From an uncultured Candidatus Saccharibacteria bacterium (GTDB lineage Bacteria; Patescibacteriota; Minisyncoccia; UBA6257; 1-14-0-10-40-38), in the NCBI GenBank assembly GCA_964543265.1, contig CAZIWN010000001.1, positions 104,577 to 168,576 of the forward strand: 64,000 nucleotides of DNA. The letters run 5' to 3'. This document shows, one piece after another, positions 7,018-64,000 of the stretch (its first letter is position 1; each line of letters begins with the position of its first letter). The notes below the pieces were generated by a model. It did not search any database and had not been told where the DNA came from. It saw only the letters and a list, made by a program, of their open reading frames with translations. The translations under genes were made by a program, and so were the position numbers.

Positions 7018-7020
7018 TAG

Positions 7021-7074: not shown

Positions 7075-7080
7075 AGTAGT

Positions 7081-9421: not shown

Positions 9422-9433
9422 TTCAAGGTCTCA

Positions 9434-9474
9434 AAATCCCGCGCATGAGGTAAGTCCAAAGCGCGGGTTTTTTA
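9434..9474. terminator. Bidirectional terminator CCCGCGC...GCGCGGG flanked by A- and T-tracts.
   Basis: Sits between convergent genes. Confidence 0.75.
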
Positions 9475-9885
9475 ATTCAAAAACAAATACGCCCAAATTG
9501 CTACGAAAAGAATGGGCAAAAATAGGAGCCAATTCCATAAGCGGTTTTTTCCAATCAAAACATCTTTAACAGATCCTTCTTTATGTGGCCACATCTGAAA
9601 ATCTTCATATCCAAGTTCTTTTTCAATCGCCCCGATTCTTCTAATCCAGGCATCTCTCCAAAGTTTCTGTTTCCTTAATAAGAAAAACCAATAGAAAGAC
9701 AGGATTAATCCCGTAAGCTGGGCGATATGTAGATATTCTGGGCTGACTTTGCCGGCAAATATCGCCACAAAGATGGCGCTTTCAATCGCAAAGAAAAAAT
9801 TGTATAGGCGATACAGCCCATCTATTTCAGATCGAACTTGAGCGATAAACCGATCATACTGCTTCTCCAAAAATTCTTTATTCAT
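9472..9885 (-). CDS. Hypothetical membrane protein of 137 aa.
   Basis: Two to three TM helices. The start overlaps the upstream gene by ATGA. Confidence 0.5.
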   Translation of the reverse strand: MNKEFLEKQYDRFIAQVRSEIDGLYRLYNFFFAIESAIFVAIFAGKVSPEYLHIAQLTGLILSFYWFFLLRKQKLWRDAWIRRIGAIEKELGYEDFQMWPHKEGSVKDVLIGKNRLWNWLLFLPILFVAIWAYLFLN

Positions 9886-13797: not shown

Positions 13798-14115
13798 ATG
13801 ATTAATTGGAGCAGTAAAGAAATTGAAAAATTAGTTACAGCAATTCTTCTTTTAGAAACAGAAGAAGATGCCAAAACATTTTTAAGAGATTTAATGACAG
13901 AAAAGGAAATTAGAGAATTTTCAAAACGCTTACAAGTCGCAGAAATGCTTAGTAATAAAATCTCTTATTCAGTTATTGAAAAAGAAACAGGTTTAAGCTC
14001 AACCACAATTGCCAGAGTTGCCAAATGGCTAAACGGCAAAGAGGGTGGATATAAAAATATTTTAGATAAACTGCATCGCCATAGCGCCTTACAGGTCGGT
14101 AGAAGGTTGTCTTAA
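13798..14115 (+). CDS. TrpR-like YerC/YecD family DNA-binding protein.
   Basis: Motif ...EEDAKTFLRDLMTEKEIREFSKRLQVAEML.......IEKETGLSSTTIARV. Confidence 0.75.
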   Translation: MINWSSKEIEKLVTAILLLETEEDAKTFLRDLMTEKEIREFSKRLQVAEMLSNKISYSVIEKETGLSSTTIARVAKWLNGKEGGYKNILDKLHRHSALQVGRRLS

Positions 14116-14216
14116 TGTTGGATAAATCATTAAGCTAACCTTCTCCTGAGTTGGAGAAAAGGGTCTGCTGGTCACCCTAAAAGACTAGCAACGGTTCTTT
14201 GACAAGGGAGAGAGTC

Positions 14217-14417
14217 ATGAACAGTCACATGCACCCGCACGATCACGATCACGGCGTTCGCGCTTCCGACGATCGGCATCACGGTGTTCACGGCGACCAC
14301 AGTGATCACAGCGACAGTGGCCACAGGCACCACAGGGGTGCGCACGGTCACGATCACAAGGCGCACGGTCACCACCACGGGTCGGTCCACAAGCAGAAGA
14401 GGGGCGGCGCGCACTGA
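14217..14417 (+). CDS. Histidine-rich 66-aa peptide (about 38% His) with GC-rich codons; likely metal binding.
   Basis: SD site AAGGGAG lies 6 nt upstream of the ATG at 14217. The run is MNSHMHPHDHDHG...HGHDHKAHGHHHGSVH. A terminator follows. Confidence 0.55.
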   Translation: MNSHMHPHDHDHGVRASDDRHHGVHGDHSDHSDSGHRHHRGAHGHDHKAHGHHHGSVHKQKRGGAH

Positions 14418-14493
14418 TTTCGTATTCCGCGATTTGTCAGAGATGTCATCATGAAGTCTTTTCCAAGTCCGAAGTCCGGTATTCAATACGAAA

Positions 14494-14538
14494 AAGGAGT
14501 TGATCACGATACGTCGAGATCAACTCCTTTTAATTTTT
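14494..14538. terminator. Bidirectional terminator AAGGAGTTGATC...GATCAACTCCTT followed by a T-tract.
   Basis: 12-bp perfect stem. Confidence 0.8.
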
Positions 14539-14775: not shown

Positions 14776-14781
14776 TGCGGC

Positions 14782-14851
14782 TGCGGGACCTGGGCTCGAA
14801 CCAGGATACCAGCTTTCAGAGAGCTGTGTCCTACCATTAGACGATCCCGCA
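14782..14851 (-). tRNA. tRNA-Gln (anticodon CUG) with a U1:A72 pair; CCA is not encoded.
   Basis: Cloverleaf folded by hand: acceptor TGCGGGA/TCCCGCA, U8, anticodon stem CAGCT/AGCTG with loop CTCTGAA, and T-arm CTGG TTCGAGC CCAG. Confidence 0.8.
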
Positions 14852-25248: not shown

Positions 25249-25407
25249 ATGTTTGAAAATTTTAAAAATTGGTTTAAAGAAAATGAAAAGAAGATATTAT
25301 TTATCCTTATAATATTTCTAAGTATCACTTTAAGTTTAGGATTAGGATTCTTGCTTGGAAAAAAATCAAAAGTCACACCAATTATTATCGAGAAAAATTC
25401 AAATTAA
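25249..25407 (+). CDS. 52-aa single-TM peptide (MFENFKNWFKENEKKILFILIIFLSITLSLGLGFLLGKK...).
   Basis: Hand-translated small ORF in native AT-rich sequence, followed by a strong terminator. Confidence 0.35.
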   Translation: MFENFKNWFKENEKKILFILIIFLSITLSLGLGFLLGKKSKVTPIIIEKNSN

Positions 25408-25414
25408 ATTTTAA

Positions 25415-25456
25415 GTGCCACCTCCAGCGCTTGCGCTAAATAGGTGGCACTTTTTC
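25415..25456. terminator. Terminator GTGCCACCT...AGGTGGCAC followed by TTTTT; also T-rich on the minus strand.
   Basis: 9-bp perfect stem. Confidence 0.8.
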
Positions 25457-25466
25457 TTCCCCGTCT

Positions 25467-25688
25467 TCAGTTCAGGACGGTGACGAATCTCCCGATTGGT
25501 GTGAAGACTTGTTCACCGTCGACGATCTCGAGTTGTCCGAGAACTTCGCCACATCCCGGTACGGGGCAAGAAACGTTTGAGTGTTTGCAGGACGGGGCAG
25601 CGACCTTGCACTGGCCATACCTTCCTTCCCACTTGCAAACGCACCTGATCTGCGTCTCCGCACCGCACTCCTTCTGACTCATCGTCAT
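25467..25688 (-). CDS. Cys-rich 73-aa protein with 8 Cys (CGAETQIRCVCKWEGRYGQCKVAAPSCKHSNVSCPVPGCG) and GC-rich codons.
   Basis: SD site AGGAGG lies 9 nt upstream of the ATG at 25688. It is wedged between a terminator and the rnpB promoter. Confidence 0.5.
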   Translation of the reverse strand: MTMSQKECGAETQIRCVCKWEGRYGQCKVAAPSCKHSNVSCPVPGCGEVLGQLEIVDGEQVFTPIGRFVTVLN

Positions 25689-25761
25689 TTCTTTCCGCCT
25701 CCTGAAGCTGGATTCGAAACTAGACATAATAATAACAATAATTAAGCCAAAAAGGCAAGAT

Positions 25762-25790
25762 TTGTCTATTTTTAATATTTATGGTATACT
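25762..25790 (+). promoter_or_regulatory. rnpB promoter TTGTCT-17-TATACT.
   Basis: Spacing places the transcription start near 25797, which is the first nucleotide of the P1 helix. Confidence 0.55.
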
Positions 25791-25796
25791 TTTAAA

Positions 25797-26141
25797 GTCG
25801 CTTAGGTGATTACACGGCATCGCAAAAAAATGCCGTGAGGAAAGTCTGGACTCCTGTCTTGCGAGAAATCGCAAGTAAACGTACCGGTTAAAAGCCGGCT
25901 GGGTAATCCAAGAGGTGCGAAAAGTGACGCTCAAAGACGAAAGAATTTGAGAATCCGCTTGCGGATTAACCTTCTCTATAGTGAAGGAGAGGGGTGCAAC
26001 GGCTAAATCCTTACGAGGTGCAAGATCGTGCTCTAAATTAAAACTTAGAGAGAATCGCTTGAGCCTTAAAGTAATTTAGGGCCTAGATAAATTATCACCG
26101 CTTCGCCGAAAGGCGGAAACAGAATCCGGCTTATTAGCGAC
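25797..26141 (+). ncRNA. rnpB: RNase P RNA (bacterial type A).
   Basis: Conserved GAGGAAAGUCUGGACUCC (P4 5' strand), ACAGAAUCCGGCUUA (P4 3' strand) and a P1 pairing GTCGCT/AGCGAC, followed by a terminator. Confidence 0.85.
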
Positions 26142-26155
26142 AAAAAATATCAGAA

Positions 26156-26180
26156 GTCCGCGCCTAAAGCGCGGATTTTT
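26156..26180 (+). terminator. rnpB terminator TCCGCGC ctaaa GCGCGGA followed by TTTTT.
   Basis: Read from the sequence. Confidence 0.8.
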
Positions 26181-26196
26181 GATATATGGTTTAATA

Positions 26197-26225
26197 TTGC
26201 TTTTATGACAACAATCTGTTATTAT
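26197..26225 (+). promoter_or_regulatory. Candidate promoter TTGCTT-17-TATTAT for the small membrane ORF.
   Basis: Read from the sequence. Confidence 0.4.
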
Positions 26226-26269
26226 GATTAACAGTTCTTCGGTTAAGGTCATTGGGAGGGAAGGCCTTG

Positions 26270-26458
26270 GTGGAATTCGGAAAGAGGCTTTGCTTCGCTC
26301 TGGTCTGGACTGTTTCCTGGGTTCTTCCGAAGGAATCTAGGGACGAGGAAGAAGAGGTGAGTGGTGTCTTGAAGCTTCTCCTCTTCGCCCTTGTCGGAGT
26401 TGGAACGGCCTTGGTTCTTCACTTCTATCGGATGAGGCAAAACTTCATCCAGATTTGA
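26270..26458 (+). CDS. Small two-TM membrane protein of 62 aa from the GTG start (68 aa if the TTG at 26252 is used), GC-rich.
   Basis: SD site GGGAGGGAAGG lies 5 nt upstream of the GTG. Two hydrophobic helices are separated by an acidic EEEE loop. A terminator follows. Confidence 0.45.
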   Translation: MEFGKRLCFALVWTVSWVLPKESRDEEEEVSGVLKLLLFALVGVGTALVLHFYRMRQNFIQI

Positions 26459-26477
26459 AAGAAGGCCAAGTGTCTCA

Positions 26478-26558
26478 AATGGCGTGCTGCCACCAAGTAG
26501 CGCGCCATTTTTTTTGTAAAAAAAGACCACCCATTACTCGCTCGCGAGCTAGGGTGGT
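26478..26558. terminator. Pair of convergent terminators sharing a central T8/A7 tract: ATGGCG...CGCCAT followed by T8 on the plus strand, and ACCACCC...GGGTGGT followed by a T-tract on the minus strand.
   Basis: Read from the sequence. Confidence 0.65.
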
Positions 26559-26570
26559 TTTCTGTCGCTG

Positions 26571-26789
26571 TTAACGAGGAGTAGTCGCTTCCCCGAACAG
26601 CATCGGTACTTCTATCAGATGCTTTTTATTGCATCCCTTCTTGCATTTCGGATGCGTCGAGCTCCCAAAATATGTATTGCCCTTTGGGATCTTACCACCG
26701 CACCCAGTGCAGGTACGATCCAAATGGGCAACATGATGTTCTGGAACCTCATCATCCTCTTCGTCGCTTCCGCCGTTGCCTCCACGCAT
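26571..26789 (-). CDS. Small zinc-ribbon protein of 72 aa from the ATG (CTGCGGKIPKGNTYFGSSTHPKCKKGC), acidic N-terminus.
   Basis: SD site GGGGAGGG lies upstream of the ATG. Its own promoter TTGAAA-17-TATAGT (26845-26873, minus strand) and its own terminator flank it. Confidence 0.5.
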   Translation of the reverse strand: MRGGNGGSDEEDDEVPEHHVAHLDRTCTGCGGKIPKGNTYFGSSTHPKCKKGCNKKHLIEVPMLFGEATTPR

Positions 26790-26876
26790 TGGGTTCGCCC
26801 TCCCCGTGAATGGATTGATGGTCAAGAAACGTGTACTGATATTTACTATAAAACATTCTTAAATAATTTTCAAAAT

Positions 26877-26920
26877 GAAAAGGCCCGGCTAGAACTATAC
26901 GTTCTATAACCGGACCTTTT
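26877..26920. terminator. Bidirectional terminator with a long imperfect stem GGCCCGGCTAGAAC tatac GTTCTATAACCGGACC, flanked by A4 and T4.
   Basis: Read from the sequence. Confidence 0.65.
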
Positions 26921-26946
26921 GCTCCGTCTTGCGGAGCCGTCGCCTT

Positions 26947-27153
26947 TCAGGCGGTGGCAACTGCGAGTTGCCGGCTCTCGGCGCGGAGCTCTGCGAGTTC
27001 TCCGCTCGAGAACAGATTGAGCAGTTCAGGCCACGTCGGCATCCTGCCGAGCTTCCGAGCCTTCCGCGCGATGATCTGCCGCATCGTGGGCACCGCGACC
27101 TCTTCTGAGCACTGATCGCAACCATTCGCGCAGCACTTGGATTCGCACGCCAT
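26947..27153 (-). CDS. Cys-rich 68-aa protein (N-terminal CESKCCANGCDQC, basic/helical C-terminus).
   Basis: A GGGGGG tract lies 7 nt upstream of the ATG. Copy B of the consensus promoter sits about 90 nt upstream. Confidence 0.5.
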   Translation of the reverse strand: MACESKCCANGCDQCSEEVAVPTMRQIIARKARKLGRMPTWPELLNLFSSGELAELRAESRQLAVATA

Positions 27154-27246
27154 CGTAGTTCCCCCCGAATGCCATTCTGATTTCGCCCTAAGGCTCGTCA
27201 GAGGACTTGTGAATGACTAGGGCCAATCCCTTATCATCACTCCTAT

Positions 27247-27276
27247 ATTATATCATACAATATATTAATTTGTCAA
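27247..27276 (-). promoter_or_regulatory. Near-perfect sigma70 promoter TTGACA-18-TGaTATAAT, copy B of the repeated promoter module.
   Basis: Read on the minus strand: CTATTGACAAATTAATATATTGTATGATATAAT. Confidence 0.7.
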
Positions 27277-27469
27277 TAGATAAAGCATAAAAAGCTAATA
27301 AAATAAGGATTTTAATATAAAAAATCTTAAAAATAAGGATTTTTTAACAACTCCAAATTTTCACCTCTTTACAAATTAAATTTACTTTGATATAATATGG
27401 AAATGAAGGTTGGACTCAAATCGTTATTAATAGTAGCGATGAGTCCAAAAAATAATTTAAAATAACTAT

Positions 27470-29485: not shown

Positions 29486-29496
29486 CCATTTTAAAA

Positions 29497-29526
29497 CCCC
29501 GCATAATGCGGGGTTTTAAATTTGAC
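29497..29526 (+). terminator. Terminator AAAACCCCGC ataat GCGGGGTTTT.
   Basis: Read from the sequence. Confidence 0.8.
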
Positions 29527-29822
29527 GAAGAATCTTTTTAGATTCAAAATTAAAAATAGCACGATCCGAAGGCAACATTTTGCCAAAGGAGAAGAACTTG
29601 GAAAAAACCCTGCCAAGAGAGGAGCGATTTCGCGAGTGGGGAGTCGCAGAAACACTATTTCGCGGCGCATTTCTTATTCTTTGCGGACCGCTAGGATATT
29701 TGATCGGAGGTTTTTTCGTGGGATATTTATTGAATGCTAAGTGACGATCTTCTGCCGCGCGAGTACAGGCGCGGCTTTTAATTTATAACAAAATTATATT
29801 ATTTCTTGTTATAATAATTCCT

Positions 29823-34502: not shown

Positions 34503-34532
34503 TTGACAATATATCTATTTAGGGAATAAAAT
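34503..34532 (+). promoter_or_regulatory. Consensus-like promoter TTGACA-18-TAAAAT at the start of a GC-rich islet.
   Basis: Read from the sequence. Confidence 0.6.
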
Positions 34533-34590
34533 TAAATTCCACGCGCTTTAAGAGGAAGCGCGCAGAAATCACTTGTCGAAGGGAGATTGA

Positions 34591-34821
34591 ATGGGTGCGA
34601 AGAGGGGATCTACGGTGAGGCAGGGATCTGTTGGCGGCGCCTCTTCTTCTACTGTCTTGAACCGACTGGCTCAACCCGACTGGAAGTTCAAGGGGGTTGA
34701 ACCGATTCGCGGGGCGATGAAGGGGTGCAGGTCTTGCACCTTCGATGGCGTGCCTCACGGTCAGTTCAGGGTGGGTGGTCCGAGGGGCGTCGTCTCCAGG
34801 TGTCCTTGCACGAACAGGTGA
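34591..34821 (+). CDS. Small 76-aa ORF (CRSC...CPC) in a GC-rich islet; coding status uncertain.
   Basis: SD site GAAGGGAG lies 6 nt upstream of the ATG. The Gly/Arg/Ser/Val-rich composition is typical of a random GC-rich translation. A 5' UTR hairpin CGCGCTT/AAGCGCG precedes it and a strong terminator follows. Confidence 0.35.
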   Translation: MGAKRGSTVRQGSVGGASSSTVLNRLAQPDWKFKGVEPIRGAMKGCRSCTFDGVPHGQFRVGGPRGVVSRCPCTNR

Positions 34822-34825
34822 TTTT

Positions 34826-34866
34826 TCAGCCCGGCTTTCCGAAAAGGAAGCCGGGCTGTATAATTT
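34826..34866 (+). terminator. Terminator CAGCCCGGCTTTCC gaaaa GGAAGCCGGGCTG followed by TATAATTTAT.
   Basis: 13-bp near-perfect stem. Confidence 0.8.
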
Positions 34867-34872
34867 ATATAA

Positions 34873-35256
34873 ATGAAAAAAGTTATGGTTTTCGGCGACT
34901 TCGATGGCCTTCATGAGGGTCATAGATTTTTTCTACGAAGCGCCAGAAAGTATGGAGATTATTTAATAGTGGCAGTTTCTCAAGATCATATTATCAAGCA
35001 TTTAAAAGGAGAATATCCAATAAAGAATTTTGCCGAACGCTTTGAGCACTTAGAAAATTATGACGATGTAAATCAAGTTGTCATTGGTGATCCGGAAAAC
35101 TCCCCAATTAATTTGATAAAAAAATATAATCCCGATATAGTTGTCTTATCTAAAAATCAAGAATTTTTACAAAACGAGATAGAAAGAAATTACGAAAATT
35201 TTTCTAAAAAAATTGAATTAAAGATAGTAGACGTTGGAGAAATAAAAATTTATTAA
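34873..35256 (+). CDS. Cytidylyltransferase-like (HxGH) nucleotidyltransferase domain protein (FMN adenylyltransferase-like).
   Basis: Motif VFGDFDGLHEGHRFFL. Confidence 0.55.
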   Translation: MKKVMVFGDFDGLHEGHRFFLRSARKYGDYLIVAVSQDHIIKHLKGEYPIKNFAERFEHLENYDDVNQVVIGDPENSPINLIKKYNPDIVVLSKNQEFLQNEIERNYENFSKKIELKIVDVGEIKIY

Positions 35257-36557: not shown

Positions 36558-36565
36558 TTTTAAAT

Positions 36566-36600
36566 GCCCAACCATTTTCACGGTTGGGCATTTTATTTGT
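36566..36600. terminator. Terminator GCCCAACC attttcac GGTTGGGC followed by a T-tract (bidirectional).
   Basis: Read from the sequence. Confidence 0.8.
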
Positions 36601-36762
36601 TTATCTTTTCGGCTTTTTATTTGGTTTACATATCAACCATACCATTAAAGCCAAAAGCCCAAGGGCAATAAGTGCGATGTTCCAAGGATTTATCCCAAAA
36701 TCCTTAGCTGTTGTTATTATCTCTCGCGACCATCCTGGCATTGGACACTTGCTGTCTTGCAT
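36601..36762 (-). CDS. 53-aa protein with a C-terminal TM helix (MQDSKCPMPGWSREIITTAKDFGINPWNIALIALGLLALMVWLICKPNKKPKR).
   Basis: SD site AAGGGG lies 6 nt upstream of the ATG. Candidate promoter TTGATA-16-TAGACT lies upstream on the minus strand. Hand-translated. Confidence 0.4.
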   Translation of the reverse strand: MQDSKCPMPGWSREIITTAKDFGINPWNIALIALGLLALMVWLICKPNKKPKR

Positions 36763-36838
36763 CTTTTTCCCCTTAGTTTTTTGCCATTTGTGCTGTTTTC
36801 TAGTCTACAAGAATATTTTTAATTATCAAAACTTAAAT

Positions 36839-36884
36839 AAAAAAAAGAACCCGAGAACCGCTCTGGATGAGCTAGCTCTCGGGC
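36839..36884 (-). terminator. Minus-strand terminator CCCGAGA...TCTCGGG followed by TTCTTTTTTTT.
   Basis: Read from the sequence. Confidence 0.6.
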
Positions 36885-37089
36885 TGCAGAACAGTCCACA
36901 TTCACGATCCCGAAAAGAGTTACGACGATTTCCTCGAGGACTTACGTCTCAGGGTTCGATTGAGGGGAAGAAGCCAAGCTGAAGTTCGATCCAATTGCAC
37001 CATCTTTCGCCGGCGTTTGAATCTCTCCCTTATACGCTTTTCTAAAGATCGAGGTGAACTTTCCGCCCGTATATAATATCATATTTCTT

Positions 37090-37273
37090 TAAAAACAAAA
37101 AAATCCGAGAATCATGTACTTGCGCACAAGATTCTCGGATCCAGGAACCCTCTTTGCTAGGGACATCATTGGAAGGTTTGCAGTGCTATGGAATTAATCG
37201 TGCTCTGCGCAGGATCTTACCAAGGCTGTTGCATTCTTTCCGTTGGAAACCTAGCTCATACGGCTAACCTGGT
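37090..37273 (-). ncRNA. Candidate small RNA of about 180 nt. Promoter TTGACA-17-TATATT (37281-37309, minus strand), then an ORF-less body, then an 11-bp perfect hairpin terminator ATCCGAGAATC...GATTCTCGGAT with a T7 tract.
   Basis: No ORF longer than 26 aa and no SD site. Strong promoter and terminator. Identity unknown. Confidence 0.4.
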
Positions 37274-37334
37274 TAATTTAAATATAACAATATTACATCT
37301 TTATGTCAAATTTGTAACAAATTAACATTTATTT

Positions 37335-38399
37335 TTGTTGAACTATCTAATGAATAAAAAACTAAAAATCACTCTACTTTTTGGAGGAAAATCAGCCGAA
37401 CACGAAGTTTCTATGCTTTCGGCAAAAAATGTTTTTAATGCTCTTGATAAGAATAAATACGAAGTTTTTTTAATCGGAATTGATAAAACGGGTTATTGGA
37501 GTTTTTTTGAAGACTCCAAAATCTTATCCGAAAAAAGCATAGAAAAAATAAACAGAAATCATAATGGATTCTTAGATCCCAACTGCGGAAAAATTTTAGT
37601 TGATTCAGATGTAATTTTTCCAGTCCTCCACGGTGGCACAGGAGAAGATGGAACAATTCAAGGATTTTTCAAATTAATAAATAAACCATTCGTCGGCCCA
37701 GGAGTTTTAGGGTCTGCTTTGGGGATGGATAAAGATGTAGCTAAGCGCTTATTAAATCAAGCGGGGATTGCTACGGCTAAATTTATTACTCTTAGAGATT
37801 ATGAAAATATAGATTTTAAAAAAATAAAAAAACAGCTAGGGCTTCCGCTTTTTATAAAACCAGCCAACTCCGGTTCTTCGATCGGAGTTTCTAAAGTTAA
37901 AAAAGAATCAGAATTTACACTAGCCATTAAAGAGGCTTTTAAATACGATAGTAAAATATTAATCGAAGAATTTATAGACGGCAGACAAATTGAATGTTCT
38001 ATATTGGGAAATGATAATCCAATAGCTTCAATCCCAGGAGAAGTTATCACAACTCATGAATTTTATTCATACGAGGCAAAATATTTAGACAAAAACGGTG
38101 CAATTCTAGAAATTCCAGCTAAATTAAATAAAAAAATCTCTAAACAAATTCAAGAAATATCATTAAAAACTTTTAAAGTCTTAGAATGTTTTGGTTTAAG
38201 TCGTGTCGATCTTTTTTTAGATAAAAAGGGAAAGATTTATGTTAATGAAATAAACACTCTTCCAGGATTCACTTCAATCAGTATGTATCCCAAACTCTGG
38301 GAAGCTAGCGGAATAAGTTATTCAGATTTAATAGATAAACTCATCGAATTAGCAATAGAAAAATTTAAAAAAGACAGTAAATTAAAAACTTCTTATTAA
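37335..38399 (+). CDS. ddl: D-alanine--D-alanine ligase.
   Basis: N-terminal KI.LLFGGKSAEHEVS..SA and an ATP-grasp domain. Confidence 0.9.
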   Translation: MLNYLMNKKLKITLLFGGKSAEHEVSMLSAKNVFNALDKNKYEVFLIGIDKTGYWSFFEDSKILSEKSIEKINRNHNGFLDPNCGKILVDSDVIFPVLHGGTGEDGTIQGFFKLINKPFVGPGVLGSALGMDKDVAKRLLNQAGIATAKFITLRDYENIDFKKIKKQLGLPLFIKPANSGSSIGVSKVKKESEFTLAIKEAFKYDSKILIEEFIDGRQIECSILGNDNPIASIPGEVITTHEFYSYEAKYLDKNGAILEIPAKLNKKISKQIQEISLKTFKVLECFGLSRVDLFLDKKGKIYVNEINTLPGFTSISMYPKLWEASGISYSDLIDKLIELAIEKFKKDSKLKTSY

Positions 38400-38445
38400 A
38401 AATTAAACCGCCAGGACCCTTGTTGGGCGCTGGCGGCGTTTAGTT
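38400..38445. terminator. Bidirectional terminator CCGCCAG...CTGGCGG.
   Basis: A-tract upstream; T-tract on the minus strand. Confidence 0.65.
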
Positions 38446-38451
38446 CAATAC

Positions 38452-38802
38452 TTAGCCCGTAGGCTCAGTATACGTAGCATCAAGAATAAAACTCTTCTTT
38501 TGATCAAAGGTTCCACTGAATTTATCATCTCCGCGCTTAACAGCAATTCTAACAGGAACCCACACGTGTCCGAATGTTGCATCTGCCTTGCGATACATCG
38601 TACAGGTTACCGAAACCGGAAGCAGGCCCTGAGCTGGTCCACGATTTTTAAGACTTAAGGTAAATGTTCTGATGTCCAGAAACCGCGTAGCTTCGATATC
38701 CATAGCATTCCACACGGAGTCATTATCTCCGTCAACCGTGCTAATTGCGATTTGCGTCATCCTGATTGCCAAAAGCACGCCAGCAGCCAAGCTCATTTTC
38801 AT
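38452..38802 (-). CDS. Secreted 116-aa protein (signal peptide MKMSLAAGVLLAIRMTQIAIS), GC-rich codons.
   Basis: SD site GGAG lies 6 nt upstream of the ATG at 38802. Copy C of the consensus promoter lies upstream. Confidence 0.5.
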   Translation of the reverse strand: MKMSLAAGVLLAIRMTQIAISTVDGDNDSVWNAMDIEATRFLDIRTFTLSLKNRGPAQGLLPVSVTCTMYRKADATFGHVWVPVRIAVKRGDDKFSGTFDQKKSFILDATYTEPTG

Positions 38803-38940
38803 CGGACATCTCCTTGTCAAAAGGGGATTCACTCCAGGGGTCAACCCAGAAAGTGGCAGCCATCACGGCAGCACCTTAGAAGCAAGAATAAGTCTTCTTT
38901 CCAAAGTGCCACCGTGACAACCTCTCAATATGCTTATAAA

Positions 38941-40962: not shown

Positions 40963-41352
40963 ATGTTTATAAAATTTCCTAAAGATACTCCAAGTATTTC
41001 TTGGACACGCCATATTAAAAATAAGATGGCTTTTTATGGCCTTTCTGAATCAAAAATAAAATCTATACTTGCTTATCCAAAACGCAAAGAAGAGGGTATT
41101 GCTCCTGATACTTTTGCTTCAATGAAGCGAAATGATAAAAAAGAAAAAAAGGAAGAGATTTGGATAATGTATCTAGATAAAAAAGAAAAAATGAAGGTAT
41201 CAAAGCTCAAAAAAAGATCAAAGATTTTAATGATCAGTGCTTGGCGTTATCCGGGAATTTCAAAGCCAGGCTCTCAAATACCAATTCCTGAAGATATTTT
41301 AAATGAAGTAAAAGGATTTTTTAAAATTCAGGAAAATTCTAGTCTTTTGTAA
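40963..41352 (+). CDS. Hypothetical protein.
   Basis: ORF only. Confidence 0.4.
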   Translation: MFIKFPKDTPSISWTRHIKNKMAFYGLSESKIKSILAYPKRKEEGIAPDTFASMKRNDKKEKKEEIWIMYLDKKEKMKVSKLKKRSKILMISAWRYPGISKPGSQIPIPEDILNEVKGFFKIQENSSLL

Positions 41353-41353
41353 A

Positions 41354-41382
41354 TTGACATTTAGATTCCTTATTGTTAAAAT
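41354..41382 (+). promoter_or_regulatory. Consensus promoter TTGACA-17-TAAAAT.
   Basis: Read from the sequence. Confidence 0.65.
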
Positions 41383-41389
41383 TGTAGGA

Positions 41390-41707
41390 CAAGCGAGTTT
41401 AGAGGTCGCAAGTCAGCCTTCTGACGCCAAAGTTCTCAAGCTCCTTCTTCGCACTTCGCAAGCGTCTTTAGGTCTAAAAAATGGACTCTCGACCTTCATC
41501 GGGAGTTGACCTTCCGTTTTCACTGGTCACAAATCCAGTGACCGCTGGCTAACCGATTACGACCAGGTTATCCGACACGGTGAGTAATCTCTGGGACAAT
41601 TAGATGTAACTAACCAGGGAGCGGTAAGAAATTGCGCCTCAAAAACTCGCGCGGTGCCCCAAGCTTCGAGCAGGGTGAAAGACAACCCTGCTCGAAGCTA
41701 CTTTTTT
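41390..41707 (+). ncRNA. Candidate ncRNA of about 320 nt (GC about 50%), bounded by the consensus promoter and a 15-bp perfect hairpin terminator AGCTTCGAGCAGGGT...ACCCTGCTCGAAGCT followed by T6.
   Basis: No ORF longer than 28 aa on either strand and no SD site. Identity unknown; I found no match to tmRNA, SRP RNA or RNase P RNA motifs. Confidence 0.45.
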
Positions 41708-41723
41708 AAAATAAATATAAAAC

Positions 41724-42719
41724 ATGAAATTATCCATAGGTATAGTTGGTCTCCCAAACGTTGGTAAATCGACTTTATTTAAAATAATCACAAAAAACGA
41801 AGTTAATATAGCTAATTATCCATTTTGCACAATTGATCCAAACGTAGGAGTCGTTTCTGTACCAGATGAAAGATTGGATAAATTAAGCGATATGTCTAAG
41901 TCTGCCAAAAAAGTACCAGCTATTATTGAATTTTATGATATTGCTGGTCTTGTTAAGGGCGCCTCTTCTGGTGAGGGATTGGGTAATCAGTTTTTATCTC
42001 ACATCAAAGAAACGGAGGTAATAGTCCAAGTATTAAGATGTTTTTCTTCTGAAGAAATAATTCACGTTGAAAACAGAGTTGATCCTTTAACTGATTTAGA
42101 AATTATAAATACCGAATTAATTTTAAAAGACTTAGACGTTGTCTCTAAAAGATTTGCCAAAATAGATTCAGAAATAAAATCAGGCAACAAACAGGCAGTT
42201 AAAAACAAAGAGGTTTTAGCTAAAATAAAAGAAAAGCTTGAAAAAGGGGAATTAATTAGCGATTTTAGAGATGAATTAATAGTTAAAGAACTCCAGCTTT
42301 TAACTGCTAAAAAGCAAATCTATTTTTTAAATGGTAAACCAGAAGATGTTAGTGAAAAATTGAAAGCCAAAATAGCTTCTTTAAATTGTGAGTATGTCGT
42401 TTCTGACTTATCTACCGCAGAAAATATTCCGGAACTGATTAAAAAAGCTTACAAAGTTCTAGATCTTATTAGTTTTTTCACTACTGGAGAAGACGAATCA
42501 CGCGCTTGGACTATTAAGCGTGGTTGGAAAGCGCCACAAGCTTCAGGGGTTATTCATACCGACTTTGAAAAGAAATTTATTCGCGCAGAGGTAATTGCTT
42601 CAGATAAATTATTAGAATGCGGTTCTTGGGTTAAAGCAAAAGAAAAAGGATTAATCAGGGTAGAGGGTAAAGAATACGAGGTGAAAGATGGTGATGTTTT
42701 AGTTGTCCGACACAGCTAA
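41724..42719 (+). CDS. ychF: Ribosome-binding ATPase YchF (Obg-family GTPase).
   Basis: Motifs GIVGLPNVGKSTLF and ANYPFCTIDPNVG, plus a C-terminal TGS domain. Confidence 0.9.
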   Translation: MKLSIGIVGLPNVGKSTLFKIITKNEVNIANYPFCTIDPNVGVVSVPDERLDKLSDMSKSAKKVPAIIEFYDIAGLVKGASSGEGLGNQFLSHIKETEVIVQVLRCFSSEEIIHVENRVDPLTDLEIINTELILKDLDVVSKRFAKIDSEIKSGNKQAVKNKEVLAKIKEKLEKGELISDFRDELIVKELQLLTAKKQIYFLNGKPEDVSEKLKAKIASLNCEYVVSDLSTAENIPELIKKAYKVLDLISFFTTGEDESRAWTIKRGWKAPQASGVIHTDFEKKFIRAEVIASDKLLECGSWVKAKEKGLIRVEGKEYEVKDGDVLVVRHS

Positions 42720-45318: not shown

Positions 45319-45332
45319 ATTCTAAACTTTAA

Positions 45333-45366
45333 AAAGGCAAATCTTGTATAGATTTGCCTTTTTAAA
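45333..45366 (+). terminator. Terminator GGCAAATCT tgtata AGATTTGCC followed by TTTTT.
   Basis: Read from the sequence. Confidence 0.8.
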
Positions 45367-45379
45367 TACTATATGTTAT

Positions 45380-45638
45380 CCTTATAAGCGTCGGTAGGGC
45401 TGACTTTGTCTTAGCTCTGATAAGTGGGACACTTTGTGCCCACAACGAAATTCGGCGAATAGAGAGGCGTGGTCGCAAGATCACAATAGCTCCTCTCGTC
45501 AGAGTACGAGCAAATCAGCCCTACCGACACCATTTCAAAAACAAGGCACACGGTGCTGCTGGTACCCCCCCGTACCAGACACCGCTGAGTCACTGGTCCG
45601 ACGCTACCCGCAAGGGCGCGCTCGGACCTATTTTTTTA
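45380..45638 (+). ncRNA. Candidate structured ncRNA of about 260 nt. A 14-bp long-range helix (45390-45403 pairing with 45515-45528) encloses 111 nt. Then a GGTAC-C6-GTACC hairpin and a terminator GTCCGA...TCGGAC followed by T7.
   Basis: No credible ORF. Helices read directly from the sequence. Possible promoter TTGTAT-18-TACTAT (45344-45373). Confidence 0.4.
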
Positions 45639-45649
45639 CAATCTTAATT

Positions 45650-45676
45650 AAAACCCCGCCAATCGGCGGGGTTTTC
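45650..45676. terminator. Bidirectional terminator AAAACCCCGCC aatc GGCGGGGTTTT; it also terminates typA.
   Basis: Read from the sequence. Confidence 0.8.
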
Positions 45677-47479
45677 TTATTCAGTTCTCTTTCTTAGCGC
45701 ATTCTTTAAAATTCTTTTTCTTAATCTTATAGATGTTGGAGTGGCTTCTACCAATTCATCATCTCCAATATACTCCAAGGCCTCTTCAAGGGTTAATTTT
45801 TTAGCTGGCACCAAATCATCAGTTACAGCATCTGTTTTTGCTCTAAAGTTAGTCAACTGTTTAGCTTTACAAACATTTACCACCAAATCTTCTGATTTTG
45901 CATTTTGTCCTACAACTTGTCCTTCATAAACATCTTCTGCTGGAGCCACAAACATAACTCCTCTTTCTTGAGAGCTTAATAGAGCATAGGCGGTAGATTT
46001 TCCGGCCTCATGTGCAACCAAGGATCCATGTGGGCTAGTTTCTAATCCCTGTATTTTTGGGAAATATCCAGCGCTTAAACTATTTATAATTCCCATACCT
46101 TTAGTTTCTATAAGTAATTGATTTCTAAATCCAATAAGGCCCCTGGTAGGAATAAAGAAGTGAAACGCCACAGTTCCATTATCAACTGCCATATTTTTCA
46201 TTTCTCCCTTACGTTCACTTATCTTTTGAATAACCATTCCCGAATATTTTTCTGGTGCTTCAATCCAAACATCTTCGAATGGCTCCATGGTTACTCCGTT
46301 TTCTTCATTGAAAATAACTTCTGGTCTCGAAACTTGAAGTTCGTATCCTTCGCGTCTCATTTTTTCAATTAAAATTGAAAGGTGAAGTTCTCCTCTTCCG
46401 CTTACAATAAATTCGTCTGCAGATTTACCCTGCACAACCTGTAGCGCAACATCGCTATCTAATTCTTTCTCTAATCTTTCTTTTAGGTTTCTTGAAGTGC
46501 AATATTCTCCCTCTCTGCCAGCAAAAGGGGACGTATTTACTCCAAAAATCATTTTAACCGTAGGTTTTTCTATAACGATTGGCTTCATTCCTTTTGGATT
46601 TTCAGCTTCAGAAATAGTGTCTCCAATCATAATATTATCCACTCCAGCCACAGCTCCGATATCTCCAGCCACAAGCTCTGGAACTTCAACTTTTCCAAGT
46701 CCCGAAAAGACCATTAAGTTTGTAAGCTTAACTTTAGAAATTTCTCCATTTCTATGAACTACAGAAATCATCTGCCCAGATTTCATCTTTCCAGCAGTCA
46801 CTCTTCCAATTCCAATTTTTCCCTTAAAGTTGTCATAAGCTAAGGAAACAACCATCATTTGTAGTGTTTCATTTATTTCTGCTTTAGGTGTTGGGATGTG
46901 TTTAATAATCTCTTCAATTAATGGTTTAACTCCAGTCATATTCTCAAGTTCTGGGGCCATTCCAGTCTTTCCCAATCTTCCAGAAGCATAAACGATAGGG
47001 AAATTAAGCTGATCGTTATTTGCTCCTAATTCTATAAATAATTCTATAGTTTTTTCTAAAACATAATTAATTCTTGCATTGGGTTTATCAATTTTATTTA
47101 TAACTACAATAATCTTATGTCCCATCGCCAATGCTTTCTTTAAAACGAATCTTGTTTGAGGCATTGGGCCTTCTTGAGCATCGATAAGTAAAAGCGAACC
47201 ATCAGCCATATTTAAAACGCGCTCAACTTCTCCTCCGAAGTCTGCGTGTCCAGGGGTGTCTATGATATTAATTTTATATTCACCATAACGAACAGAAGCA
47301 TTTTTAGAGAATATAGTAATTCCTCTTTCTCTTTCAATTTCGTTAAAGTCCATTATCATCGATCCACCCTCTCCAAGCCTTCCAAGATCAGTTTCGGATT
47401 GTCTCAAAAGCGCATCAACTAAAGTTGATTTTCCGTGGTCGACGTGAGCAATAATTGCGATATTTCTTAAGTTATTCAT
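45677..47479 (-). CDS. typA: Translational GTPase BipA/TypA.
   Basis: G1 motif AIIAHVDHGKSTLVD and an EF-G-like domain organisation. Confidence 0.95.
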   Translation of the reverse strand: MNNLRNIAIIAHVDHGKSTLVDALLRQSETDLGRLGEGGSMIMDFNEIERERGITIFSKNASVRYGEYKINIIDTPGHADFGGEVERVLNMADGSLLLIDAQEGPMPQTRFVLKKALAMGHKIIVVINKIDKPNARINYVLEKTIELFIELGANNDQLNFPIVYASGRLGKTGMAPELENMTGVKPLIEEIIKHIPTPKAEINETLQMMVVSLAYDNFKGKIGIGRVTAGKMKSGQMISVVHRNGEISKVKLTNLMVFSGLGKVEVPELVAGDIGAVAGVDNIMIGDTISEAENPKGMKPIVIEKPTVKMIFGVNTSPFAGREGEYCTSRNLKERLEKELDSDVALQVVQGKSADEFIVSGRGELHLSILIEKMRREGYELQVSRPEVIFNEENGVTMEPFEDVWIEAPEKYSGMVIQKISERKGEMKNMAVDNGTVAFHFFIPTRGLIGFRNQLLIETKGMGIINSLSAGYFPKIQGLETSPHGSLVAHEAGKSTAYALLSSQERGVMFVAPAEDVYEGQVVGQNAKSEDLVVNVCKAKQLTNFRAKTDAVTDDLVPAKKLTLEEALEYIGDDELVEATPTSIRLRKRILKNALRKRTE

Positions 47480-47526
47480 ATTGGGTTGAGCGTTTATTCT
47501 ACTATATTTTGATTTAAAGAGTCAAT

Positions 47527-47554
47527 TTGACTAAAGATAATATTTGTCTATAAT
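47527..47554 (+). promoter_or_regulatory. Consensus promoter TTGACT-16-TATAAT.
   Basis: Read from the sequence. Confidence 0.6.
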
Positions 47555-47599
47555 AATAAAACCCTTAATTTTGAGGGGGTAAAAGGGAGGGATTGATAG

Positions 47600-47791
47600 A
47601 TGAGCTCTTCTGGTTCTGCGACGGCTGCACCAATCATCAGGGGACGTTGCTTAGAGCTTCGCTCCAACGCCCTTTCTCGTCGGGCTAGAAACGTGAATCA
47701 TCGCGCATTGAGCGATCACGCTCGCACCTGCGCCAGCTGCAGGGACCACCTTGCATCGCTCGCCGCCAAGCAATCGAGCTCGGCGTCTTGA
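47600..47791 (+). CDS. Small 63-aa ORF with an HxxxCxxC (ZAS-like) motif (HARTCASC); coding status uncertain.
   Basis: SD site AAGGGAGGG lies 9 nt upstream of the ATG. The Arg/Ser/Ala-rich composition could be a random GC-rich translation. A terminator follows. Confidence 0.35.
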   Translation: MSSSGSATAAPIIRGRCLELRSNALSRRARNVNHRALSDHARTCASCRDHLASLAAKQSSSAS

Positions 47792-47796
47792 GCCAA

Positions 47797-47838
47797 ATAC
47801 TCCGATAGGCCACGGGTCTGTCGGAGTATTTTATTTTC
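47797..47838 (+). terminator. Terminator ATACTCCGA...TCGGAGTAT followed by TTTATTTT.
   Basis: Read from the sequence. Confidence 0.75.
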
Positions 47839-62318: not shown

Positions 62319-62469
62319 TTTAAATAAAAGGGTAGAAATATGATAAATAATCATAAAATCATATAAAGTTTATTTTATATAGTTTTATGACTATATATGT
62401 CGCAAAAGGTATATTGGGCGACAGGTAATAGATATAGTCCCCGATAGATCAAGATAAGATTTTTTTGAA

Positions 62470-62520
62470 AATTAAAAAGCCCCTCTCCTATCTCTTTCGA
62501 GTATAGGATTGGGGCTTTCG
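62470..62520 (-). terminator. Minus-strand terminator AAAGCCCC...GGGGCTTT followed by a T-tract on the minus strand.
   Basis: Read from the sequence. Confidence 0.6.
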
Positions 62521-62521
62521 T

Positions 62522-63220
62522 TCAGTGATTCCAGTTTGTAGCGACTTCGCTACCAAACTGGTTTGCCAGACAATTCCTGAAGCGTTCGTCTTCCTCCTTT
62601 TCCCTCTTCAGGATGTCTCCAATTCCCTGCTGGTTCTCTTCGAGCTTCTCGAAGCTCATTCCGCAGAAGGCGCTTCTCGCCAATTCTTCGCAGTTGCGAA
62701 GCTTGGCAAAGCCGACGACGAGATCATTCAGCTGGGACGGCGACAAATCGTGGGGGTTGATCTCAGGCAAGGTCTCGAATAGATTCATCGCCATCTTTTG
62801 GAGATGATCGAGATCCATCTTGCCTTCTGGGTCCTGCAAGTAATTCCAGGATTGATGATCAACCAAGCTCTTCTTATGGAGCTTGGTAAGTTCGTGCTTG
62901 AGAAAATCGTTTTCCTTCTTCAGGGCTTCGATTTCCTCGTGAGCGCTTGTGAGCTCTTGGGTGAGCTCGAGGATGTTGCTCTGGCTCTCGCCAGTTTCGA
63001 TCTGAGGCTCGATTGCGCTCCTCTCGGCAACGATCTCCGTTTCCGGAGCCGTCGGCGCAAGTGTCACAGCCTGGTAGGCTTCGATCTTGGTAGGGTCATC
63101 TCCAACGAAGTTTTGTTGAGGGTGACAACCATAATCGACGCCGTGATTGTTGTTTCCTGAAATTGCGAACATGGCAACGCAGAAAACAACAAGCGCAATC
63201 AATCCGACAATTCGCTTCAT
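62522..63220 (-). CDS. Secreted coiled-coil protein of 232 aa with GC-rich codons.
   Basis: Signal or TM anchor MKRIVGLIALVVFCVAMFAISG, heptad-rich middle and SD site AAAGGAG upstream. Second gene of a two-gene minus-strand operon. Confidence 0.55.
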   Translation of the reverse strand: MKRIVGLIALVVFCVAMFAISGNNNHGVDYGCHPQQNFVGDDPTKIEAYQAVTLAPTAPETEIVAERSAIEPQIETGESQSNILELTQELTSAHEEIEALKKENDFLKHELTKLHKKSLVDHQSWNYLQDPEGKMDLDHLQKMAMNLFETLPEINPHDLSPSQLNDLVVGFAKLRNCEELARSAFCGMSFEKLEENQQGIGDILKREKEEDERFRNCLANQFGSEVATNWNH

Positions 63221-63249
63221 AGCTGACAGCTCCTTTGTCTTTCGAGTGA

Positions 63250-63295
63250 TCCCGGAAGGATCTCTTTCACTACTTAAGCCGAGATCCTTCCGGGA
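63250..63295 (-). promoter_or_regulatory. Perfect 15-bp intercistronic hairpin TCCCGGAAGGATCTC...GAGATCCTTCCGGGA with no U-tract.
   Basis: Sits between two co-oriented genes; possible processing, stability or attenuation element. Confidence 0.45.
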
Positions 63296-63311
63296 ATCTT
63301 CTCGGCTGCCG

Positions 63312-63851
63312 TCAGTTGTGGATCTTGTTGTTCGAGCCCTGGTAGTTTTCGACGTTGGCGTCGCTCCTGCCGTTCAAGTCAACGTCGTTGCCGTTGTTCC
63401 CGCCATCGGGACCAGTGAGCAACCCACCACCTTCGAAGTCGTGATCGTTGTTGTCGCAGTTCTTCTCGTTGACGCCGCCACCGTTCTTGATGTCGATGTC
63501 ATTCCCGTCGCAATCGTCCAGCTTGATCTTGCCGCCATCGGCATCGATCTCGTCGCCGTTCAGGCCTTCACCGCGGGCCAGTACGCCCTTCTTGATGGTG
63601 ATCTTGGCCTTCACGTAGTCGCCGTGATTCCAGATCTCTTCGACGACGACGTTGTCCGCGCTGTCTGGGCTGTTGGTGACCTTTCCTTCTCCGTCCGGAG
63701 CGGTCCAGGTCTGGCCAGGTCCCAGGCGAGTCGTGTGCGTTCCCGATGACGATCCGCTCGTCGCCGCGTTGGCGACCGACGTCCCTCCTCCGATCGCGAA
63801 GATCGCGACCAGAGCGAGTGCGAGCAAGGCGAAAATCTTCCTCGGATTCAT
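63312..63851 (-). CDS. Secreted Asp/Gly/Asn-rich protein with DxDxDG-like repeats; putative Ca2+-binding protein.
   Basis: Signal peptide MNPRKIFALLALALVAIFAIGGGTSVANA. Loops DADGGKIKLDD, DGNDIDIKNGG and DNNDHDFEGGG. SD site AGGAG upstream. Confidence 0.55.
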   Translation of the reverse strand: MNPRKIFALLALALVAIFAIGGGTSVANAATSGSSSGTHTTRLGPGQTWTAPDGEGKVTNSPDSADNVVVEEIWNHGDYVKAKITIKKGVLARGEGLNGDEIDADGGKIKLDDCDGNDIDIKNGGGVNEKNCDNNDHDFEGGGLLTGPDGGNNGNDVDLNGRSDANVENYQGSNNKIHN

Positions 63852-64000
63852 GCGTTCACTCCTGTGTTTTGGCCCGTTTTCGGTTCTTAAGCGAAATCGG
63901 GCTTAAGCCTACCTCCCCTTCTTTCGTCGCTGTTTTGTCAAGGTGCTACGAATCTAGGGCTACACACCCCAGTTTCATACTTAACATTACTCCTTTAACA

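Follow-up and report, generated by a model that had tools for sequence, protein, structure and literature searches.

In the 64-kb window analysed here (the whole stretch of 64,000 nucleotides (nt) from contig CAZIWN010000001.1, numbered from its first letter), a GC-rich islet immediately upstream of ychF is best read, from its sequence, as the gene of an orphan structured non-coding RNA (ncRNA). It falls outside the known families, within the broad class of orphan bacterial structured and small RNAs. We consider the chance about even that this region, islet 9 of a preliminary description, is a stand-alone gene whose product, a structured small RNA of about 315 nt, is a member of no described family. 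The preliminary description had left two alternatives for it, an unknown structured RNA or a cis-acting leader of ychF. It had named a clear Rfam match or a translated small ORF as outcomes that would refute it, and our analysis met with neither. The choice between the two leans to the stand-alone RNA. The features listed there were all present where they had been placed, and the observation is real and not a chance one. The RNA was confined to one narrow clade of Paceibacteria and was missing from the same site in the nearest outgroups. If our reading is correct, it would represent a new class of orphan RNA from the largely uncultured Patescibacteria radiation. To our knowledge, almost no regulatory RNAs have been characterised in these organisms, which have tiny genomes.

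On the + strand, the islet opens with a promoter and closes with an intrinsic terminator. The promoter (41354-41382) consists of a -35 box TTGACA (41354-41359), a 17-nt spacer and an extended -10 element TGtTAAAAT (41374-41382), in which the hexamer TAAAAT occupies 41377-41382 and the TG just upstream of it 41374-41375. This near-consensus site, the TTGACA-17-TAAAAT promoter of the preliminary description, scored 11/12 with the TG and topped all promoter-like sites between 39 and 44 kb. A single nucleotide separates its -35 box from the stop codon TAA (41350-41352) of the upstream gene, which encodes a 129-amino acid (aa) protein. Its parts TTGAC and ATTGTTAA, as well as the stretch TGTTAA, were kept in both sister lineages that carry the RNA, represented by the loci L081 and L096. 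The terminator (41662-41707) has a perfect 15-bp stem with the arms AGCTTCGAGCAGGGT (41662-41676) and ACCCTGCTCGAAGCT (41685-41699), nine of its pairs being G-C, followed after an 8-nt loop and the closing arm by AC and a run of six U (41702-41707). The hairpin alone was predicted at -29.7 kcal/mol. We estimate that chance would produce a perfect inverted repeat of 15 bp with a loop of 3-8 nt about 4e-4 times per 64 kb. The stem was retained in L081 and L096 with four pairs altered on both sides. The perfect terminator with its T6 tract was thus found as first described, upstream of ychF, whose start (41724) lies 17 nt beyond the T run.

The primary transcript predicted from these two signals extends from 41388 to 41707 on the + strand and is about 315-320 nt long, its start being placed 6-8 nt past the -10 box and its 3′ end within the U tract. 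It is homologous to L081:5669-5962 and L096:4581-4874. The GC content was 0.49-0.51 over 41400-41700, in agreement with the roughly 50% reported before, and 0.23-0.33 in the flanks. Some 275 nt of about 50% GC are therewith enclosed between promoter and terminator hairpin, in a genome with a background of 30-35% GC.

The transcript is predicted to fold into a multi-helix junction. Folded as a single sequence it reached z = -5.6 on the + strand, versus z = -3.9 on the - strand. In the consensus model, found by eye across the three variants (the window copy and those of L081 and L096), helix P1 closes the junction around five inner helices. The 5′ strand of P1 (41393-41411, GCGAGUUU-A-GAGG-U-CGCAA) pairs with its 3′ strand (41632-41650, UUGCG-CCUC-AA-AAACUCGC) over 17 pairs (8+4+5), four of which changed on both sides. 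In this helix, which was also flagged as an inverted repeat, 96% of cells were paired. P2 (41417-41472) is an irregular helix of 12 pairs between 41417-41428 and 41461-41472, two of them changed on both sides. Its apical loop is variable and pyrimidine-rich, with a core UCCUUCUU (41442-41449) that is invariant in the three variants. The hairpin P3 (41486-41505, CUCUCG/CGGGAG) carries a C/U-rich loop of 8 nt, was paired in 100% of cells with one pair changed on both sides, and was lengthened by RNAalifold. The alignment then shows a linker, J3/7 (41506-41518, UUGACCUUCCGUU), made of a conserved UUGA and a pyrimidine-rich stretch.

The 3′ part of the molecule is organised around the P7 domain (41519-41584), in which UUCACU (41519-41524) pairs with GGUGAG (41579-41584) and which encloses P4 and P5. 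P7 was 100% paired, and its sole changes were from C-G to U-G. The hairpin P4 (41525-41543, loop AAAUCCA) had two pairs changed on both sides, and the hairpin P5 (41547-41573) was 87.5% paired. In the hairpin P6 (41588-41620, UCUCUGG/CCAGGGA), 100% of cells were paired and the single change was from U-G to C-G; its loop of 19-21 nt opens with a conserved GACAAU. Together with the junctions, P7, P4, P5 and P6 form the most conserved core (41519-41631), with 80% identity to L081. It contains the longest invariant blocks, CUGGCUAACCGA, ACGGUGAG, AAUCUCUGGGACAAU and AACCAGGGAGCG.

Statistical support for this fold was first sought in a hand alignment of the three variants, with gaps padded by N, that was fitted to the structure model. 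Across its 79 pairs, 93.6% of cells were paired despite about 30% sequence divergence. Two-sided changes had occurred in 13 pairs, compared with 5.4 +/- 1.8 in shuffled alignments (none of 500 as high), and controls in which the 3′ partners were slid gave 0-3 such pairs. The two-sided changes fell in P1 (4), P2 (2), P3 (1), P4 (2) and the terminator (4), and P5, P6 and P7 showed one-sided variation or none. RNAalifold, run on the same alignment, independently returned the same helices. Since this alignment had been fitted to the model, the test was redone on an unedited MAFFT alignment with column shuffles. For the body without the terminator, the consensus energy was -58.7, compared with -36.4 +/- 4.5 for the shuffles. 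This corresponds to z = -5.0 on the + strand, with none of 200 shuffles as low, and to z = -2.4 on the - strand. Moreover, 19 G-U cells of the model would become C-A mismatches if read on the opposite strand. The G-U pairs and the shuffle z-scores favour the + strand.

Several points weigh against a firm acceptance of the fold. The hand alignment was, as said, fitted to the structure, and in the unedited alignment the two-sided changes in the body were marginal (8 versus 4.9 +/- 1.8, a count of 8 being reached by 16 of 200 shuffles). The distinct sequences numbered just three, all from a single narrow clade, which makes covariation statistics weak. In addition, GC-rich cassettes that carry open reading frames (ORFs) also have strongly negative fold z-scores, so that stability alone proves little. 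We regard the support that the three sequences lend to the proposed fold as good but not conclusive.

Coding potential was low. The earlier statement that no ORF exceeds 28 aa holds for ATG starts. It does not hold if TTG and GTG starts are allowed, when ORFs of 51, 50, 42, 37 and 36 aa appear, none of them conserved in the homologues and none with a Pfam match. No reading frame was common to the three variants. Searches with tblastx between the variants gave only matches of 13-21 codons, equally across frames and with frame switches, and the indels between variants were mostly not multiples of three. The frame that starts with the AUG at 41481 has 23 codons in the window copy versus 8 in L081 and L096. 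A TTG-initiated ORF of 25 aa (41632-41709), preceded by a GGGAG motif, is reduced to 3 codons in L081.

No clear match to a known RNA family was found in Rfam. At gathering thresholds, the sole match of Rfam 15 in the whole window was a tRNA-Gln (CTG; 14781-14851, - strand), the only tRNA within the 64 kb. The 551-nt region 41250-41800, searched at E <= 10, gave only spurious matches on the terminator hairpin (mir-1262, traJ_5), and the sister loci L081 and L096 gave no match at E <= 1. ARAGORN detected no transfer-messenger RNA (tmRNA) in the window, returning the tRNA-Gln only. In the literature that we searched, no RNA motif was tied to ychF. An identity as tmRNA, to which the preliminary description could not match the sequence, was dismissed because neither Rfam nor ARAGORN matched and the internal AUG frame differs in length between the window copy and its sisters. 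The signal recognition particle (SRP) RNA, likewise not recognised before, had no match to RF00169 or RF01854 under the thresholds given for the window copy and for the two sister loci. RNase P RNA had been said to lie elsewhere. This was correct, as the bacterial class A RNA (RF00010) was found, in a scan of the entire window at permissive thresholds, at 25797-26145 (+ strand; 95.5 bits, E 7.8e-28), and neither RF00010 nor RF00011 matched within 41250-41800 at E <= 10. The RNase P score is just below the gathering score of 100, and a default Rfam annotation would therefore miss this RNA. An RNA of the 6S or Ms1 type was not supported either: the rod-like fold with its central bubble that marks this type disagrees with the predicted P1-closed multi-helix junction, and Rfam gave no 6S match. 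Likenesses noticed by eye to the P4 strand of RNase P, SRP helix 8, T-box and the B12 box were dropped, as no model backs them.

The nearest ychF loci all belonged to metagenome-assembled genomes (MAGs) of Patescibacteria/Paceibacterota, of Harrisonbacteria, Liptonbacteria and Wolfebacteria type. In two Logan assemblies, DRR736439 and SRR12487045, the RNA region was identical to the window copy. The L081 genome is present in sample SRR8561390, that of L096 in ERR5863125 (ERZ27280317). Homologues were found only in L081 and L082 (GCA_009694925.1) and in L096-L098, which share a 90% YchF cluster with the window and have YchF proteins about 90% identical to that encoded there. Their copies sit at the same site, between a gene for a 128-aa protein and ychF. 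Nucleotide identity to the window RNA was 68.5% in L081 and 70% in L096, the two sister copies being 88.7% identical to each other, and the adjacent ychF genes were 81-82% identical. Conservation was uneven along the molecule: the 3′ core was 80% identical to L081, versus 63% in the 5′ half. The RNA was absent from L083 (YchF 77%), in which the gene order is otherwise the same and 72 nt separate the homologue of the 129-aa gene from ychF. It was also absent from L090 and L091 (YchF 73%), with a gap of about 105-126 nt upstream of ychF, and from L087 (YchF 71%), with a gap of about 33 nt. Nearly all of some 50 Patescibacteria ychF loci lacked the RNA upstream of ychF, and their gaps were mostly shorter than 130 nt.

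Wider searches did not extend this distribution. An nhmmer search over 80 ychF loci from GTDB species representatives gave no match. A covariance model of the conserved core (41503-41639), searched against 1.13 Mb of loci plus the window, found only the three known lineages; a further match of 24 bits in L006 was AT-rich noise. Three pattern scans of viral contigs and blastn against phages and plasmids gave no match. A pattern scan of metagenomes with GGTGAGNAATCTCTGGGACAA gave two matches, both within a primase-like, GC-rich ORF whose flanks are unrelated; we attribute them to chance. A MITE or an IS-derived repeat element would be expected to occur in several copies per genome, with terminal inverted repeats and a target-site duplication. 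The RNA was single-copy in the 64 kb of the window and in the 1.1 Mb of related loci searched. The inverted repeat of P1 is internal to the unit and not at the tips of an element. A 10-nt direct repeat, TT(G/T)TTAAAAT (41373-41382 and 41703-41712), brackets the 330-nt unit of RNA and terminator. It could be the relic of a target-site duplication, or merely the trace of two -10 boxes in AT-rich DNA.

We suggest the following model for the stand-alone RNA. Its transcription, on the + strand, would start from a sigma-70-type promoter of its own, one that has an extended -10 element. The transcript would fold by means of the long closing helix P1 around a multi-helix junction, with a fast-evolving 5′ half (P2, P3, the linker and the P4 loop) that displays pyrimidine-rich loops and a highly conserved 3′ core (P7/P5/P6). 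Transcription would stop at the strong intrinsic terminator, which abuts the core promoter of ychF. From these signals we infer that transcription and termination proceed as drawn here. The RNA may then act free, in trans, as a regulator or as a scaffold for protein binding, and not on ychF. As a self-contained cassette, it would have entered the locus between ychF and the ancestral promoter region of that gene.

Two observations incline us to a stand-alone RNA over a leader or attenuator, namely that ychF has a -10 box of its own and that no conserved antiterminator was found. The putative ychF -10 box TAAAAT (41707-41712, + strand) lies 11 nt before the ATG and overlaps the end of the U tract of the terminator. 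This spacing is typical of the genome, as a TATAAT-like box stands 8-12 nt ahead of the ATG in many of the window genes and only one of 57 predicted window genes has a Shine-Dalgarno (SD)-like motif, a combination which suggests leaderless mRNAs or mRNAs with very short leaders. In both L081 and L096, a promoter TTGCAA-17-TAAAAT (9/12) fits within the 48 nt between the terminator hairpin and the ychF ATG. No antiterminator or other pairing that competes with the terminator was conserved across the three variants. The best competitor for the 5′ arm of the terminator was P5 in L081 and L096 (-17 to -18 kcal/mol) and an unrelated weak site in the window copy (-11.1 kcal/mol). Another unit of the window, at 47527-47831, has a similar promoter, a GC-rich body of about 270 nt and a 17-bp terminator; as it is flanked by two minus-strand genes, it cannot be the leader of any gene. 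Nevertheless, a cis-acting 5′ leader of ychF (an attenuator, a riboswitch or a protein-binding leader), whose terminator at 41662-41707 would set the expression of the gene, is possible, if on the doubtful side. The element was always directly upstream of ychF and on the same strand in all three lineages, a point that is not independent evidence, synteny being complete across the three carriers. As in many terminating riboswitches and leaders, a domain closed by P1 is followed at once by a strong terminator and by a gene in the same orientation. Other findings also tell in favour of a leader. The ychF-proximal promoter of the window copy has no recognisable -35 box, and ychF could therefore depend on read-through. 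In L083, the promoter of ychF (TTCACT-17-TAACAT, with 11 nt to the ATG) can be aligned base by base to that of the RNA and is its counterpart in position and sequence, so that the unit of about 330 nt occupies the former 5′ region of ychF. In L009, a different structured GC-rich element lies at the same place, between promoter and ychF, with 13 nt from its last hairpin to the ATG and no room for a separate ychF promoter. Furthermore, YchF modulates the translation of leaderless mRNAs in E. coli (PMC8138138), which in a largely leaderless genome makes a tight control of ychF plausible. However, the window RNA differs from riboswitches of this kind in that it lacks a conserved antiterminator, that ychF has promoter elements of its own, that no link to ychF was seen outside one clade and that nothing hints at a ligand. 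The element is missing from most Paceibacteria ychF loci, and hence it is not a general device of ychF control. The setting raises the question of how ychF is expressed when a full terminator precedes it in a genome that appears to be leaderless.

Three further explanations compete with a stand-alone RNA gene. The islet may be a selfish or decaying GC-rich cassette with no function at the RNA level, for example a former small-ORF cassette that has lost its ORF, its structure being a by-product of composition. We consider this unlikely. It would agree with the many GC-rich islets of the window that are bounded by promoters and terminators, several with SD-led small ORFs, with their presence or absence between close relatives, and with an islet at 34539-34868 whose promoter and terminator are near-identical in sister genomes but whose body can hardly be aligned between them. 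The unrelated GC-rich sequences found after the 129-aa gene in L099, L100 and L009, the faster evolution of the RNA than of ychF (68-70% versus 81-82% nucleotide identity) and the direct repeat around the 330-nt unit point in the same direction. A decaying cassette would not, however, be expected to keep P1 to P4 by two-sided changes with nearly all cells paired, to have a consensus folding energy well under that of shuffled columns, with the larger difference on the + strand, to hold long invariant blocks in its 3′ core, or to keep promoter and terminator in all three lineages. It is very unlikely that the islet encodes a highly diverged copy of a known or universal RNA (6S/Ms1-like, SRP, tmRNA, T-box or cobalamin riboswitch) that was missed by the Rfam models. 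A strong promoter, a size of about 300 nt and a long closing helix do recall housekeeping RNAs, the Rfam models can be weak in this phylum, as the score of the genuine RNase P RNA indicates, and there is the precedent of Ms1, a 6S-related RNA of about 300 nt that was missed by sequence searches (PMC9130861). The window RNA resembles 6S and Ms1 in size class, strong promoter, long terminal closing helix and poor sequence conservation, but it differs in its predicted five-way junction, multi-branched and not a 6S-type rod, in the lack of any Rfam 6S match and in its very narrow distribution. None of these families was detected in the 551 nt around the window copy or in the two other variants, ARAGORN found no tmRNA, and a universal RNA should be present at the syntenic site and in the 1.1 Mb of related loci, and should not be restricted to one genus-level clade. 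Least probable of all, and in our view scarcely to be expected, is that the islet encodes a small protein. The ORFs of 25-51 aa that appear with TTG and GTG starts, the GGGAG ahead of the 25-aa TTG ORF and the SD-led small proteins encoded by nearby islets could be taken as hints of one; the ORF lengths that differ among variants, the non-triplet indels, the frame switching in tblastx and the lack of a Pfam match all speak against it.

Set beside known systems, the proposed RNA gene resembles the orphan structured ncRNAs of AT-rich bacterial genomes that are found by comparing GC content with length of intergenic regions (PMC8632094, PMC11109978). As in those cases, a gap of about 370 nt with about 50% GC stands in a genome of about 33% GC, without an ORF and with a multi-helix fold. 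It matches none of the Rfam families from those studies, though, and is known from three sequences of one clade.

RoxS/RsaE and RNAIII are trans-acting small RNAs whose unpaired C/U-rich motifs bind purine-rich ribosome-binding sites. The window RNA shares with RNAs of the RoxS/RsaE type the sequence signals of its own promoter and Rho-independent terminator, and it keeps several pyrimidine-rich loops that are predicted to be exposed, with the invariant UCCUUCUU in the P2 loop. It is two to three times larger, its conservation peaks in the 3′ core and not in the C/U loops, its host has an SD motif in just 1 of the 57 genes, and its strong predicted target is not kept in the sister genomes. No sequence similarity to RoxS/RsaE or RNAIII was seen. 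Phage morons are additional transcription units inserted between genes, each of deviant base composition and equipped with a promoter and a terminator. Like them, the unit of the window RNA is self-contained, deviates in GC content and is present or absent at the same junction, and several such units occur in the window. In contrast to morons, it is located among chromosomal housekeeping genes with no recognised prophage, its product would be an RNA, and it has no similarity to the phage, plasmid or viral collections searched.

The window contains more than 12 GC-rich islets (45-59% GC versus a background of 30-35%) without Pfam-recognisable ORFs, among them 6311-7497, 8863-9483, 14071-14507, 25395-25796, 26146-27469, 29486-29822, 34518-34923, 36558-37334, 38398-38940, 45319-45707, 47480-47830 and 62319-64000. 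The best promoter-like sites of the window (11-12/12) were mostly found at the 5′ edges of islets, at 7017(-), 27276(-), 37309(-), 38970(-), 34503(+), 41354(+) and 47527(+). At least three of them (34503, 41354 and 47527) are followed by a strong terminator on the same strand, at 34827-34858, 41662-41699 and 47795-47831 respectively. Strong SD motifs, which the genes of the host lack, precede small ORFs in several islets. Together, the islets appear to form a population of autonomous cassettes, each made of promoter, body and terminator. Islet 9 was the only islet examined in detail that had no plausible ORF, and it showed neither shared sequence nor paralogy with any other GC-rich islet there. 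The setting raises a second question, that of the nature of these GC-rich, promoter- and terminator-bounded cassettes, which differ between sister genomes. Their variable pattern is arguably more intriguing than islet 9 alone.

Individual cassettes illustrate this variability. The cassette at 34503-34868 (+ strand; islet 34539) has the promoter TTGACA-18-TAAAAT, an SD-led ORF of 76 aa and a 13-bp terminator. Its counterparts in L101 (5456-5946) and L102 (5456-5907) have ORFs of 84-87 aa with a CxxCxGxG-like motif, and this CxxC-motif protein is conserved between the two. The promoter and terminator are near-identical in these sister genomes, whereas the body can hardly be aligned with the window copy. 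The islets 36558 and 45319 were common to the window, L081 and L096. On the - strand between serS and ddl, the islet 36594-37278, with the promoter TTGACA-17-TATATT, was conserved in L081, L096 and L097. The product predicted from its SD-led ORF of 53 aa has a single hydrophobic helix followed by a basic tail, which recalls small membrane toxins. The unit at 47527-47831 (+ strand) has a promoter TTGACT-16-TATAAT scoring 11/12, a fold z of -4.5 and a possible ORF of 63 aa behind GGGAGGG. It lies between bipA and dnaX, both on the - strand, and these genes are 59 nt apart in L083, which makes the islet 47480-47830 a clade-specific insertion. The islets 6311-7497 and 26146-27469 have a stretch of 62 nt in common (77% identity, E 4e-7). 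A weak match links islet 6311 to L096:1735-2072 as well, and the - strand of this islet has an SD-led ORF of 97 aa with a lipoprotein-like signal (LLSVGC).

The junction that holds the RNA is occupied by other sequences in some relatives. In L009, from a Harrisonbacteria MAG, the junction between the homologue of the 129-aa gene and ychF (5710-6000) contains an unrelated GC-rich element of 250 nt. This element has a promoter TTGCCA-17-TATGCT, a 15-bp closing helix, several hairpins and a fold z of -6.0, with no Rfam match and no similarity to the window RNA. In L099 (1265-1419) and L100 (2124-2318), the 129-aa protein has 88% and 66% identity, respectively, and the stop codon of its gene coincides in part with a promoter-like site. 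Other GC-rich sequences follow, inside which the contigs end, consistent with a strain-variable or repeated region. Homology of the window RNA with the elements of L009, L099 and L100 was dismissed, as neither sequence nor model similarity was found, those of L099 and L100 being cut by the contig ends.

The unpaired parts of the 5′ half remain pyrimidine-rich while the stems change, as seen in UCCUUCUU of the P2 loop (L2), in CCUUC/CCUC of the P3 loop (L3) and in UCC/CCUC of the P4 loop (L4). The J3/7 linker likewise keeps its C/U-rich character. The persistence of these unpaired parts suggested a pairing with the purine-rich initiation regions of SD-led cassette ORFs. In the window copy, L2 is predicted to form 15 bp with the first six codons of the islet-34539 ORF, which at -24.4 kcal/mol is the second-best non-self site in the 64 kb. 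In the genomes of L081 and L096, the cognate pairs of loop and ORF reached only about -14 kcal/mol and were not the best sites. A conserved specific interaction between L2 and islet 34539 is therefore not supported. A generic pyrimidine-purine complementarity is all that remains of the anti-SD idea, which is not supported as a specific mechanism. Islet 9 could on a broader view be the RNA-only member of a group of fast-evolving GC-rich cassettes that colonise gene junctions in these Paceibacteria and are gained and lost among close relatives, the junction before ychF being filled by unrelated structured elements in several lineages. In a genome with leaderless genes devoid of SD motifs, its anti-SD-like loops would then act on the few SD-led mRNAs of other cassettes or titrate a factor that binds purine motifs, making the RNA a regulator of accessory cassettes, a proposal that we think improbable.

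The RNA gene stands among conserved chromosomal genes. Upstream of it, the gene for the conserved hypothetical protein of 129 aa (40963-41352, + strand), taken from the ORF list, has 841 homologues in Patescibacteria and no Pfam domain. The downstream gene (41724-42719, + strand) is ychF, as the preliminary description had it, and encodes a ribosome-associated ATPase. Its Pfam domains (MMR_HSR1, FeoB_N and YchF-GTPase_C) agree with this assignment, and its product is named redox-regulated ATPase YchF in the source records. The neighbours at the locus are alr, an FtsQ-like gene, ychF, bipA and dnaX.

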